A stretch of DNA of 60,797 nucleotides, the filler included, from Squatina squatina (Eukaryota), in the NCBI GenBank assembly GCA_031763465.1. It is 3 parts of 2 records of this genome, joined end to end, with 100 filler letters (N's around TTAATTAATTAA, not from the genome) between each part and the next. Parts side by side here need not be neighbours in the genome. Positions count along the whole stretch, not along the records: positions 43,645 to 60,797 come from JARFOE010000100.1; 2 more parts are not named here. One strand, given 5' to 3'. The notes under the pieces were generated by a model. That model ran no database searches and was not told where the DNA came from. It saw only the letters and a list, made by a program, of their open reading frames with translations. Positions within the stretch are counted from its first letter, which is position 1. Each line of letters opens with the position of its first letter. Below are positions 4,066-60,797 of the stretch, piece after piece. The translations under genes and the position numbers were made by a program.

Positions 4066-4658
4066 GTCTTAGTTGACAATTTCCCCAAATGGGTGGAAGC
4101 TTTCCTATCTTAAGCTGCTACAGCCCTGTTCATGGCCAAAACTCTAGTAAATGAAGTTTTCTCCAGATGGGGGCTTCCAGATATCATGGACTCTGATCAG
4201 GGGTCCATTTCATGGGACAGGTTTTGCAAATTGTGTTGACAATGTTGGGGGTAAAGGCCAAGTGGCATGTCACCTATCACCCACAATCCTCTGGAATCTT
4301 GGAAATAATGAATCAAACCCTTAAGGAATGGTTGAGGACGGATCTGGGCGAAGTGGATCAAAAGAAATGGGATGAAATCCTACCGGTAGTACTTATAGGT
4401 ATCAGGGCAGGAACCTCCAGATCCACTGGCTATTCCCCGCATGAGCTGGTAACGGGAAGAGCGATGAAGACAATTATACACCTGTTAGTCCCAGGGTTGA
4501 GTGACAGACAGGAACTAGAAACCAATAAGGATAAATTTGCCACTAACCGAAGAGAGAGCCTGCAAAGAGTTTTGCGAACAGGTGCTGTTAATATTGGAAA
4601 ATGCCACAGGGAAAACAAACTGCGACTAGAATGTGCAAAAACCCAAACTGCATGCTAA
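4066..4658 (+). mobile_element. degenerate Gypsy/retroviral-type integrase (rve) fragment
   Basis: VLVDNFPKWVEAF, FSRWGLPDIMDSDQG, YHPQSSGILE.MNQTLK, W...LP.VL..IR, TGYSPHEL. Contains an in-frame stop (about 4111) and a frameshift near 4205. Confidence 0.85.
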
Positions 4659-44957: not shown

Positions 44958-46080
44958 CAAATATACACACAAATACTCACTCAAATACACTCACATACCC
45001 TCACTCAAATATACCCCTCGACCCTCACTCAAATGTACTCACAAACGTTCACTCAGATATACCCCTAGACTCTCACTCAAATATACTCACTGATCCTCAC
45101 TCAACTATACTCACAGACCCTCATTCAAATGTACCCACTGATCCTCAATCAAATATACTCAAAGATCCTCACTCAATATGCTCACAGACACCCACGCACA
45201 TATACTCACAGACCATCACTCAAATGTACTCATGGACACTCACTGAAATATATCCCTTAGACCCTCACTCAAATATACTCAAAGACGTTCACTGATATAT
45301 ACTCTAAGACTCTCACTCAGATATCCACTAGACCTCACTGAAATATACCCTAAGACCTCACTCAAATATACTCACACAACCTCACTCAAATATACCCCTC
45401 AAGCCACAATTAAATATACTCACAGACCCTCACTAAAATATACTCACAGACCCTTTCTCAAATATACTCACGGACCCTCACTCAAAGATACACACAAACC
45501 CTCACTCAAATATACTCACACACCCTCACTCAAATATGTCCCTCAGCCCTCAGTCAAATATACCCCTAGACTACTGACACAAATATACTCACAGACCCTC
45601 ACTCAAAAATACGCACAGACGCTTATTGCAATATACCCTGAGACACGCACTCAAATATACTCATAGAACCTCACTGAAATATACCCCTTGACCCTCACTC
45701 AAACATACTCAGAGACCCTCATGCAAATATACACAAAAACCCTCAATCAAATATCCCCACTCACCCAAACTCAAATATACTCACAGACACTCACTCCAAT
45801 TTTCTCATAGACACTCACGCACAAATACTCACAGCCGCTCACTCAAATATACCCCTTAGACCCTCACTCGAATATACTCACAGACCCTCAATGAAATATA
45901 CCCCTATACCATGACTCAAATATATTCACAGACCCTCACTCATATACCCTCACAGATCCTCACTCAAATATACTCCCAGACCCTCTCTCAACCAGACTCC
46001 TAGATCCTCACTCAAGTATACTCACAGACCCTAACTCAAATATACTCATGCCTCTCACAGACACTCATCCCCACATATAC
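44958..46080. repeat. ~24 bp minisatellite array (about 1.1 kb visible)
   Basis: Tandem CCCTCACTCAAATATACTCACAGA units with a recurring ...ATATACCCC(T)TAGA variant. The left end is in a gap. Confidence 0.95.
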
Positions 46081-55752: not shown

Positions 55753-55867
55753 GTGGACGTGATAAAAGAGGTGGTCCAATCCTAACTTTCCCAGCTCGCA
55801 GTAATCATGATAGAATAAAACAAGACGACCTCCGACAACTTGTCACATATTTAGCAAGCGTACCCAG
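55753..55867 (+). CDS. KALRN: Kalirin exon 3 (Sec14/CRAL-TRIO domain, 115 bp)
   Basis: Acceptor ttcattgcag; GGRDKRGGPILTFPARSNHDRIKQDDLRQLVTYLASVP; donor GTAGAG. LVTYLASVP is kalirin-type rather than TRIO-type (LISYLACIP). Confidence 0.93.
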
Positions 55868-56832: not shown

Positions 56833-57210
56833 AAGCTGGGCACTTTCTCTAGAAAAGAGGAGACTGAGAGGTGAGTTGATAGAGGTCTTTATGATTATGG
56901 AAGAGTTAGATAGGGTAGCTATAGAGATGATGTTTCCACTTGTGGGGGGTGGGGGGGGTGCAGAACTAGGGGCTATAAATATAATAGTCACTGATAAATC
57001 CAATAGGGGGTTCAGGTCAAACTTCTTTACCAAGAGTGTGGAACTCGCTACAACAAGGAGTACTTGAGGCAAATAGTACAGATGCATTTAAGGGGAAGCT
57101 CGATGAGCACATGAGAGAGAAAGGAATAGAAGGAGAGGTTGATTGGGTTCGATGAAAAAGGGTGGGAGGAGGCTCATGTGGAGCATAAACACTGGCCTGT
57201 TTCTGTGTCA
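56833..57210 (+). mobile_element. CR1 LINE 3' end
   Basis: KLGTFS..KRRLRGELIEVFMIMEELDRV...MFPLV and tail GATGCATTTAAGGGGAAGCT...GGAGGAGGCTCATGTGGAGCATAAACAC. Confidence 0.85.
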
Positions 57211-57453
57211 TAAGTACTAAGAAGAAGGAGAAGAAGGCTATGTAATACACTGTAATAGTCCCAATTTAACACTTGACAGTATTATCACAATTAGACGAGG
57301 AGACAATTTCTTCACAGAAATCCCATTTATATAACTTTTTAATTATTTACAATTTTAAAATATTTCATAATTGTAACAAATTCAATTCACAAGTAACTTC
57401 TGTAAAAATGCAATATTTCAACTTCACGCTGAAGGAATCAATGACAATGCTGG

Positions 57454-57621
57454 CTGGTACAAGCAGGACGCAGTATTGTCTAGGAAATATCTACTGGTTA
57501 AAGCAATGGGTATTATCAGTGCCACTCACTGGTACAAACAGGACGCAGTATTGTCTAGGAAATGTTTATTGGCTAAAGCAGCTTCCCTACCTTGGGTATT
57601 ATCAGTGCCACTCACTGGTAC
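57454..57621. repeat. imperfect tandem duplication (75/86 bp units)
   Basis: CTGGTACAA.CAGGACGCAGTATTGTCTAGGAAAT...TGGGTATTATCAGTGCCACTCA occurs twice (starting at 57454 and 57529), with a third CTGGTAC at 57615. Confidence 0.9.
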
Positions 57622-57697
57622 GTCTCATGTCTATATTAGGATCACTAGTCCTTTGCTACCACATCACCTAAATACACGTTGTCCTGAACAAGTTCAG

Positions 57698-57703
57698 TTT
57701 ATT
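57698..57703 (-). promoter_or_regulatory. candidate polyA signal of the DDO-like gene
   Basis: TTTATT on + equals AATAAA on -, about 250 nt after the stop codon. Confidence 0.4.
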
Positions 57704-57950
57704 CTAATATTGCTTTTCCAGAAATAAGGAAACAGGGTTTTAATGTTTTTTTTAGATGATAATAATAGCATCAATAGTAAACGGGAAGGAGACAGATACA
57801 GTAATTGTATCAATTAAATATTTGATTAAAAACCAGATGAACTGAGACTAAAAATTTTAACGAGATTAATTTTTTTGTAAATCGCTTGGCGGCCTTAATA
57901 CTAACCATTTAGTATTGTTTCTGCAACTAATCAATGGGTCCCATGATGAT

Positions 57951-58497
57951 TTAGATGTCTATTTCTGTTGTGCACTCCTTCACCAGTTGTGCAGCTTCCA
58001 TGGCAGTTCCCCAGTGGTGAGAAACACCAGCCACACCATGGCCGTAATTGTGCACCAAGCACATCTGGCGCCCGTCATGTTCCAGCTTCTCCTTTTCCAG
58101 TCTCAATGCTGCTCTAACAGGCCTCAGACCGACCGCTTCAGATAGCTTACGAGAGAGCTTGAGACTTGGTTCGTAAGCACAACACGCCTCAAAAATTGCC
58201 TTGCTGTCAGATGGGTCGACTGACAGCCGCCAATCGTCTTTCTGCCTTGTTCCGCCCAAAGTAACACTGGAGAGTCCTGGGTAGATATAAGAGGTACCAT
58301 CGCCTACATGGACAAAGTGTTTCAGCCAAGGAGCATGAACTTTATGGACTTGGCCCCTTATTGGATATATTTTCATATCCCCAGTAAGTGCCCTGGCTCC
58401 AATGCCTGAACAGTTCACAATAACGTCATACTTTCCATCAAGCTCCCAGAAATCTGTGATCTTCCCAGCCTGCAACTGGCCTCCAGCATTCTTTAAC
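57951..58497 (-). CDS. D-aspartate oxidase-like (DAO/DDO family flavoenzyme), terminal coding exon, antisense inside KALRN
   Basis: Acceptor aattgcag at 58498-58500, then an uninterrupted frame LKNAGGQLQAGKITDFWEL...DVIVNCSGIGA...PIRGQV...YIYPG...VTLGGTRQ...GLRPVR...HNYGHG...HWGTAMEAA...EIDI*. It is colinear with the single large last exon of vertebrate DDO. Orthology to DDO itself is not established. Confidence 0.92.
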
Positions 58498-58794
58498 CTG
58501 CAATTAATAATTCAATCTTCACCAAAACGTTGTGCTTACAAAGAAAATTATAAAGTCAGTATTATTCAATCAATAAGTTTGTTGGGGAAAGAAAAGCATC
58601 GGGTTCCCCTCCCTACACCGCTAACGAGCTTCAGGCAGCCTGCTACAGCTTGCCAGCAGTGGGCTGACGCAATTTTGGCAGCAAGGTAGGTCCTGGTAAA
58701 ACTCGGTGGACCGAACATGGAACACGCTCTGCCCAATTGTCAGTCAAAATTGCAATTGCGGTCCTATGTATATCATACCGCATGAAACGGTTAA

Positions 58795-59246
58795 AGAAAG
58801 ACTTGCATTTATAAAGTGCTTTTCATGACCACCAGACGTTCCAAAGCACTTTACAGCCAATTAAGTACTTTTGGAGTGTAGTCACCATTATAACGTGGGA
58901 AACACGGCAACCAGTTTGCACACAGCAAGCTCCCACAACAGCAATGTGATAATAACCATATAATCCGTTTTTTAGTGATGTTGATTGAGGGATAAATTTT
59001 GGCTCGGACACTGTGGCTAACAACCCTGCTCTTCTTCAAAATAGTGCCATAGGAGAGGGCCTCTGTTTAACGTCTCACCTGAAAGACGGCAGCTCCAACA
59101 GTGCAGCATCTCTGGCAGTGCAGCACTCCCTCAGTATTGCACTGGAGTGTCAGCCTAGATTGTCTGCTCAAGTCCCTGGCGTGGGGCCTGAACCATTAAC
59201 CTTCAGACTCGGAGATGCGAGTACTACGACTCAGCCAATGCTGACA
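58795..59246 (-). mobile_element. near full-length DeuSINE/SacSINE1-like SINE
   Basis: tRNA-like head (TTGGCTGAGTCGTAGTACTC...GGTTCAGGCCCCAC), central CCAGTGCAATACTGAGGGAGTGCTGCACTG...TTTATCCCTCAATCAACATCACT block, and tail ATAAATGCAAGTCTTTCTT on the - strand. Confidence 0.85.
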
Positions 59247-59498
59247 CTTTGGGAATAAGAAAAAAAACTAATCAAAACAAAGTAAAAAGGAGAAGTAGTA
59301 GCAGGTGAACATTAGAAAGTTTATGTTTCTTGCAATTACTGTATCAGAACTAACATCTTTGAATTTCGGATTTGTAGATTGCTGCATCTACTGGTCATGC
59401 GTCAGTAATCTAGGAAATATCTATTCCAAGTCATGTAAATGTAAGATTTTTCAATATCAGTGCTGAAATGCTGATTCTGTTGAAATATCTTTTTTCAG

Positions 59499-60011
59499 AC
59501 AAGTATGGTATCCGTGGAAGGGCTTTCAAAGTTGGTGGATCCTTCCCAATTGACTGAAGAATTTGATGGCACACTGGACTATAATCATGATGAATGGATT
59601 GAGCTTCGACTGGCGCTGGAAGAGTTCATCAGCAGTGCTGTGCATCTGTTATCCAGACTAGAAGACCTGCAGGAGATGTTGGCCCGGAAGGAATTTCCCC
59701 TGGATGTTGAAGGTTCTCGAAAATTAATTGATGAGCATACACAACTGAAGAAAAAGGTCATCAAAGCCCCTGTGGAGGAACTGGACCACGAGGGGCAAAG
59801 GTTGCTGCAGTGTATAAGGTGCAGTGATGGTTTTTCTGGAAAGAACTGCATATCTGGCAGTGCAGATTTTCAAAGCGTTGTGCCAAAGATTACCAGTCTA
59901 CTGGATAAACTACACTCAACTAGACAGCACTTACATCAGATGTGGCATGTTAGGAAACTGAAGTTAGATCAATGCTTCCAACTTCGGCTCTTTGAGCAAG
60001 ATGCAGAAAAG
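59499..60011 (+). CDS. KALRN: Kalirin exon 5 (end of Sec14 domain and first spectrin repeat, 513 bp)
   Basis: Acceptor ttttttcag; TSMVSVEGLSKLVDPSQLTEEFDGTLDYNHDEWIELR...QCFQLRLFEQDAEK; donor GTAAAG. Confidence 0.96.
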
Positions 60012-60797
60012 GTAAAGTTCCATCTGCATAGTTTTTAACGCGATGTGTTCGCTATATGTTTATAACAAATTTACTTAATCCTCCCTCTCTCTCTCTTTTA
60101 TATAACATCTAACACAGTTCACCATCTTTCTTCAAACATGGCAGCAAAGGACTCCCAGGAATCACATGCATTTGATTTTCAAATCTGAATAAACAGAAAA
60201 TGATATTTTATATTGGGTGTTAACGCTTAATAAAATCGGATTAATTTTTCATTCCCCCTCCCAACTCTTATTTTTAATTTATTCAATACTGATTGGAATT
60301 TTCATTAACCCATGAATGGCCACTTGGTAATTGAGTAGGCATTTCCCAGGAATGCTTCATTTATTAAAAAAGATTGTGGTGAAGCTCAGTTAGGCAGCAC
60401 TGACAAGAGGCTTGATTTGAGCCCTGCACCTTTGCTGCACAGTGTATAGTTTCAGACTTCATTTAATTTCATGACTACTGCATTTTCACCATTTGCTTAT
60501 ATTCATGTGCGTGAAAAATATCACCATTTACTACATGCCTTTGACATTACATATGTAATATTCTGGGCCTGTGTGACAGTGTGGCATATAATATTGGCCT
60601 GGAATTTGCAGTGGGTAATAACAGCGAGCGAACAGTGTGCGCTGTTATTACCCCTTTAAAACTGATTGCAACCTCAGGATTTAGTGCATGTGCATCTAAA
60701 CGCGGAAATCCTGAAGTTGCAGTCAGTCATTCATTGCTCCGCCGCTGGCTCTGCTGTGCCCCCCACTCCCCATAACTGGCAATCAGTGTAATCGGGA

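Follow-up and report, generated by a model that had tools for sequence, protein, structure and literature searches.

Vertebrates are described as having a single DAO and a single, narrowly acidic DDO, which share the breakdown of D-amino acids. In the structure of human D-aspartate oxidase (hDASPO, 6RKF), Arg216 makes a salt bridge to the side-chain carboxyl of the substrate, Tyr225 and Arg237 also contact the substrate, and Ser308 contacts the flavin ring through its backbone and sterically limits inhibitor binding (PMC8260693). The human variant R216Q has lowered efficiency with D-Asp and gains activity on D-Ala (Katane 2017, as cited in PMC8260693). Homologous exon copies that are swapped by splicing are known from human tandem duplicated exon substitutions such as those of ACOX1 and KHK; in PMC9741552, 77 of 236 such events are C-terminal swaps, the residues that bind ligands are for the most part conserved, and the text contains no mention of DDO. 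Several DDO forms per animal, some without a peroxisomal signal, are known from C. elegans as DDO-1 to DDO-3, which are separate nematode genes (PMC10851380).

The shark exon analysed here resembles hDASPO in its fold, in Tyr223, Arg237 and Arg278, and in its short 217-221 loop, but differs from it in having His at 216, Val at 308 and no C-terminal peroxisomal signal. Whereas the four isoforms of hDASPO arise through exon skipping and an upstream start, several sharks have a duplicated last exon. The charge of Arg216 is lost as in R216Q, which is a rare variant of a single gene; in contrast, the shark case is that of a separate exon copy in which His is paired with Val308, beside an intact ordinary exon that is seen in relatives. 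The arrangement is like that of ACOX1 and KHK, but the shark differences centre on substrate-binding residues and the swap spans over half the enzyme, unlike the events in PMC9741552. The multiple forms recall those of C. elegans, except that they are exon copies of one vertebrate gene. Among the literature matches listed, from a search that lay outside most subscription journals, there was no prior report of duplicated DDO exons in sharks. The duplicated shark DDO last exon, with its conserved altered pocket and without a peroxisomal tag, is real and previously unremarked. Our main reading, at a probability of roughly 0.5, is that in several sharks this exon serves as an alternative ending, predicted from its sequence to yield a minor, non-peroxisomal form with weaker D-aspartate preference.

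The window is the whole stretch of 60,797 nucleotides (filler included) from Squatina squatina that was analysed. Its features that concern DDO are as follows.

57951..58497, minus strand: last coding exon of DDO, variant copy of the His216/Val308 type, corresponding to human residues about 153-334, open frame
58498..58499, minus strand: splice acceptor AG, in the same phase as in other DDO last exons
58308..58310, minus strand: CAT, a His codon, in place of Arg216 (sequence and alignment to human DDO)
58287..58289, minus strand: Tyr223, which with Arg278 serves the alpha-carboxylate, kept (alignment)
58245..58247, minus strand: Arg237, the gate residue, kept (alignment)
58122..58124, minus strand: Arg278, kept (alignment), which binds the alpha-carboxylate (role from PMC8260693)
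58032..58034, minus strand: GTG (Val) at position 308, where most sharks have Gly and human has Ser; the window-like copy of relatives A and B has Val too
58017..58019, minus strand: His at position 313, where ordinary shark exons have Phe; shared with the window-like copies of A and B
57927..57959, minus strand: variant tail, 11 codons homologous by base-change count to the His/Val tail of Chiloscyllium and Hemiscyllium; it stops early, at 57951-57953, and a second in-frame stop is at 57927-57929
57698..57703, minus strand: AATAAA some 250 nt past the stop, a candidate polyadenylation signal (consensus match only)

The open frame extends for 181 codons on the minus strand, from the acceptor AG (58499-58498) to TAA (57953-57951), and alignment with other DDO last exons begins at the same Arg-Leu-Lys junction. 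A DAO or DAO-like paralogue was ruled out: the alignment to human DDO 6RKF has no gap (E 1e-64), whereas that to DAO chains is weaker (E 2e-38) and opens a gap of six residues at the lid loop of DAO; the short 217-221 loop is present as in DDO, and the long lid loop (about six extra residues) and DAO-clade sequence are absent. The nearest named proteins are the shark DDOs of Heptranchias (88% identity) and Pristiophorus (87%), next to which the exon is also placed, with weak support, by the tree, a position that makes a squalomorph shark the likely source. Within the window, neither the upstream DDO exons, including the N-terminal GxGxxG FAD-binding part, nor a second copy of the DDO exon was found; only the last coding exon is present. 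In the predicted models of C. plagiosum and Hemiscyllium, the FAD-binding part is joined to the corresponding exon. A search of 56833-60797 against Rfam gave no match. On the 3' side of the exon there is a short tandem duplication (57454-57621; units of 52 nt and 29 nt, spacing 75-86), and a high-copy repeat lies at 57800-57870, where many contigs of relatives stack to a depth of 175-445.

The first-pass annotation had claimed that Arg216 is changed to His and Ser308 to Val, while the equivalents of Tyr223, Arg237 and Arg278 are kept. The minus strand does read CAT at 58310-58308, and the gapless alignment puts this His on Arg216; all three of the kept residues are confirmed by the alignment as well, and no other catalytic residue is changed. 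The Val codon GTG at 58034-58032 is also as described, but Ser is not the appropriate starting point: the baseline in sharks is Gly, so the change is from Gly to Val. The rarity of these residues was assessed in 94 rows of ordinary vertebrate DDOs (96 chosen, of which P0069 and P0085 were dropped for motif mismatch). Position 216 is occupied by Arg in 92 rows, Lys in one and a gap in one; His, whose commonness in ordinary orthologues would by the first-pass annotation's own criterion have refuted its claim, occurs in none. Among 88 vertebrate-type cluster representatives, the same position is Arg in 86, Lys in one and a gap in one. Position 308 is Gly in 67 of the 94 rows, Ser in 18, Ala in eight and Pro in one, and never Val. 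Over 175 positions, the window exon has just three residues that occur in none of the 94 ordinary DDOs, namely His216, Val308 and His313; in the His/Val exons of C. plagiosum and Hemiscyllium, only His216 and Val308 are of this kind. By this comparison of sequences, the changes at 216 and 308 are not due to chance. Sequencing error was rejected as their source because both recur in other species, and a general occurrence of His216 in sharks was rejected because ordinary DDO rows keep Arg216. Isolated substitutions in other DDOs include Lys216 in lumpfish (P0082), Pro308 in Narcine (P0011), Thr237 in lungfish (P0023), Lys237 in Phrynocephalus (P0021), and Trp237 in Amblyraja (P0015; Arg in Leucoraja).

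Ordinary shark DDO exons terminate in SKL-type tripeptides. The product of the window exon ends after Glu-Ile-Asp-Ile, without a C-terminal peroxisomal tripeptide, and this loss, as read from the translated end of the exon, is a point that the first-pass annotation missed when it described an intact enzyme. That description goes further than the sequence does: the peroxisomal tag is missing, the upstream exons lie outside the window, and the His-bearing contig of relative A is frameshifted. The tail itself is related to that of other variant exons: starting from the 11 codons after Glu-Ile in the window, nine base changes lead to the Chiloscyllium His/Val tail, compared with 18-22 to each of 11 ordinary tails, and a score of nine changes or better is reached at 39 of 112,002 window positions. 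The final stop is at the same offset in the window tail and the Chiloscyllium His/Val tail, and the His/Val tail of Chiloscyllium plagiosum and Hemiscyllium ocellatum likewise lacks a peroxisomal signal.

Two copies of the DDO last exon are seen in relatives A, B and C, in Hemiscyllium, in C. plagiosum and in catsharks; we infer two in the window species also, and the exon in the window is very probably the second of them. In C. plagiosum, the full-length predicted isoform models P0136 and P0138 have His216 and Val308, and the Arg/Gly exon belongs to a separate model, P0105, whose contig is equally long. It is the variant exon that sits in the database entry titled 'D-aspartate oxidase', and the ordinary exon is labelled 'DDO-like'. 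The two exons of this species differ at six of 170 residues, only two of which, one being 216, precede position 308. In Hemiscyllium ocellatum, a single predicted gene model (P0137, 566 aa) contains the His/Val exon followed by the Arg/Gly exon. The predicted isoform models of C. plagiosum and the catsharks have upstream sequence in common, and those of Scyliorhinus canicula join common upstream sequence to three different last exons, with similar variants in S. torazame. Catshark variant exons have Cys216 and Phe225 in four of four examined, Trp237 in three of the four, and an altered residue at 308 (Lys or Ala) in two. Such natural pairs in a near-identical background (His/Val or Cys/Trp versus Arg/Gly) are suited to testing the basis of D-aspartate specificity.

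According to the annotated models of 13 named shark species, His/Val exons are present in two, Cys exons in two, and ordinary exons only in nine, a tally of protein annotations rather than of the DNA of each species. No variant DDO model was found among the protein annotations of 10 ray, skate and chimaera species. Clustering had hidden the variants behind representatives, and they were found when the clusters were opened. The Scyliorhinus models P0008, P0140 and P0142-P0148 comprise at least three DDO last exons, with altered 217-221 loops and most of them ending in PKL. Two near-identical DDO-like models on one contig were observed in each of Microcaecilia (P0018/P0176) and Rhinoraja (P0022/P0159), and are either recent duplicates or assembly doubles.

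Contigs of closer relatives (organisms A to D) over the window exon were taken from seven of 14 listed sequencing runs. Among the runs listed, none came from the window's own species (best share 0.12) and none was an RNA run of it. In each of relatives A, B and C, the 3' part of the exon is covered by two contigs, which have two different tails, and in C the two copies were seen in run X7. In A (X2) and B (X6), Val308, His313 and Met319 of the window are kept in the nearer contig, and Gly308, Phe313, Lys319 and the ordinary tail occur in the more distant contig alone. Codon 216 is covered by a single contig per run, with His in A (X1) and Arg in B, C and D; in B and C, this contig may represent two collapsed copies. 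The His-bearing contig of A has a 1-nt deletion at 58314, 4 nt from His216, a loose end in X2 of A fits the same deletion, and the RNA-type contigs of A have no gap there; thus the variant copy of A appears to be frameshifted and, judging from these contigs, appears dead. The short distance between His216 and this site makes it unlikely that the open frame in the window is an artefact of a mosaic assembly. The ordinary exon, presumably with Arg216, is the dominant copy in both RNA-type runs of A, at a depth of 428 and 229. The window-like tail is found in one of the two RNA-type runs, on a 607-nt contig that starts in the tail and has a depth of 9.7, where the ordinary tail reaches 186. This hint of expression is weak and could come from pre-mRNA or DNA.

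The first-pass annotation had also raised the idea that His216/Val308 marks a set of paralogues. Separate copies do exist, but the duplicated unit is the last exon and not the whole gene. A tree of the exon bodies rejects a single His/Val clade (p-AU 0.0006), and copies group by their own lineage. The tails give a different picture, the window tail being nearer to the Chiloscyllium His/Val tail than to any of the 11 ordinary tails. The rejection by the tree, at the level of sequence, fits gene conversion, and it also fits independent origins. Nineteen displayed differences were common to all contigs of A, B and C that were compared, 14 synonymous and five non-synonymous against 124:419 sites (p 4e-6), which indicates that the exon is not drifting freely; all five replaced residues are found in other DDOs. 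This synonymous excess, calculated from 19 displayed sites, might have arrived through conversion, with the ordinary exon as donor. The simplest joint reading would be an old duplication after which most of the exon underwent gene conversion, with 216, 308 and the tail spared. Separate duplications with changes in parallel may have occurred instead, helped by the mutability of CpG at 216 (the two CpG transitions of the Arg codon lead to His and to Cys), although this accounts less well for Val308 and the tail.

Conversion from a working exon might also maintain the intact look of a relic with little or no function, in which His216 would be a recurring CpG mutation. Such decay is compatible with the frameshift in the variant copy of A, with the early stop and missing peroxisomal tag in the window, with the low share of this copy in RNA-type contigs, with the presence of Arg only at 216 in B, C and D, with the origin of both His and Cys as CpG products, and with the lack of a variant model in nine of the 13 shark species. 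However, decay should scatter damage, yet in distant sharks the residues that ordinary DDOs lack fall on the same two sites of the pocket, and Val308 is a transversion rather than a CpG change. His216 persists amid near-identical flanks in C. plagiosum, and Arg codons 243, 269 and 296, which contain CpG, are undamaged. A relic is regarded as unlikely. CpG is not depleted in the exon, its observed/expected ratio being 0.43 versus 0.36 in the window.

As an alternative ending, the exon would have originated by duplication of the DDO last exon before the split between squalomorphs and galeomorphs. Gene conversion would keep the exon bodies alike within each species as selection held 216 and 308 apart, and common upstream exons encoding the FAD-binding half would splice to either ending. 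Loss of the Arg216 salt bridge is predicted to lower efficiency with D-Asp and D-Glu and to admit small neutral or amide D-amino acids (D-Ala, D-Ser, D-Asn), and Val308 is predicted to narrow the space above the flavin and tighten the pocket, expectations that follow from the roles of Arg216 and Ser308 in the human enzyme. Without the peroxisomal tripeptide, the product would stay in the cytosol. The odds that the window exon itself encodes a working isoform with shifted specificity, as predicted, are about even. A full-length model of the C. plagiosum variant matches 6RKF (pLDDT 91.9, TM 0.95, rmsd 1.2; no ligand), a result that applies to the C. plagiosum isoform and not to the window's own protein. 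The model shows only that the C. plagiosum variant sequence is compatible with the DDO fold, and is silent on a clash at Val308.

In mouse work, larger residues at 308 reportedly reduced activity, which would favour either a relic or an off-switch, an exon to which splicing diverts DDO transcripts so that an inactive or mislocalised protein is made and local D-aspartate rises. A bulky residue by the flavin, the loss of Arg216 and the absence of a peroxisomal tag would jointly disable normal function, and a frameshift such as that in A would do no harm to a diverting exon. On the other hand, such an exon has no need to keep the same two residues, or Tyr223, Arg237 and Arg278, and the several different variant exons of catsharks look more like diversification; an off-switch seems quite improbable. 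If the exon is instead an alternative ending that yields an active enzyme, DDO in sharks may, as a tentative proposal at somewhat below even odds, be a switchable cassette that provides a peroxisomal D-aspartate oxidase and a cytosolic neutral D-amino-acid oxidase, with the exon held apart at 216 and 308 against conversion and expanded in catsharks. A natural exon cassette that swaps both the DDO pocket and the cellular address would, if true, constitute a third route of D-amino-acid breakdown. One speculative use of the cytosolic form would be on dietary D-alanine from invertebrate prey.

The DDO exon is surrounded by parts of another gene, kalirin.

59499..60011, plus strand: kalirin (KALRN) exon (91-92% identity with named kalirins), 1 kb away from the DDO exon and antisense to it
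55753..55867, plus strand: earlier kalirin exon (exon search)
58793..59053, no strand assigned: dispersed repeat that separates the DDO exon from the kalirin exon, matching three other places in the window; candidate false-join site

Lying antisense between the two kalirin exons, the DDO exon is placed within a kalirin intron. Its copy might truly be alone there in this species, away from DDO, in which case it could not be spliced to the upstream DDO exons; the location of the DDO exon and kalirin exon 59499..60011 on one gap-free 3,965-nt segment and the lack of any other DDO exon in the window are in keeping with this. However, DDO and the 5' part of kalirin are on different scaffolds in C. 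punctatum (3.38 versus 3.00 Mb), the only shark linkage test, and both exon copies are in one gene model in Hemiscyllium. The window lacks the kalirin exon for residues 86-146, which belongs between the two that were found, and also the one preceding it, as would fit a scaffold with gaps; the sequence is broken into 41 pieces with a median of 1.2 kb. Because of this fragmentation, the missing kalirin exon, the intervening repeat (presumably SINE-like) and the separate scaffolds of C. punctatum, a false join is probably the cause of the kalirin placement, and a truly solitary copy in the intron is very improbable. The kalirin search returned no named shark proteins. Elsewhere in the window, a low-complexity tandem repeat array with repetitive reading frames occupies 45247-45911, and a 153-codon open frame at 4197-4655 on the plus strand resembles what we take to be a fragment of a retroelement integrase.
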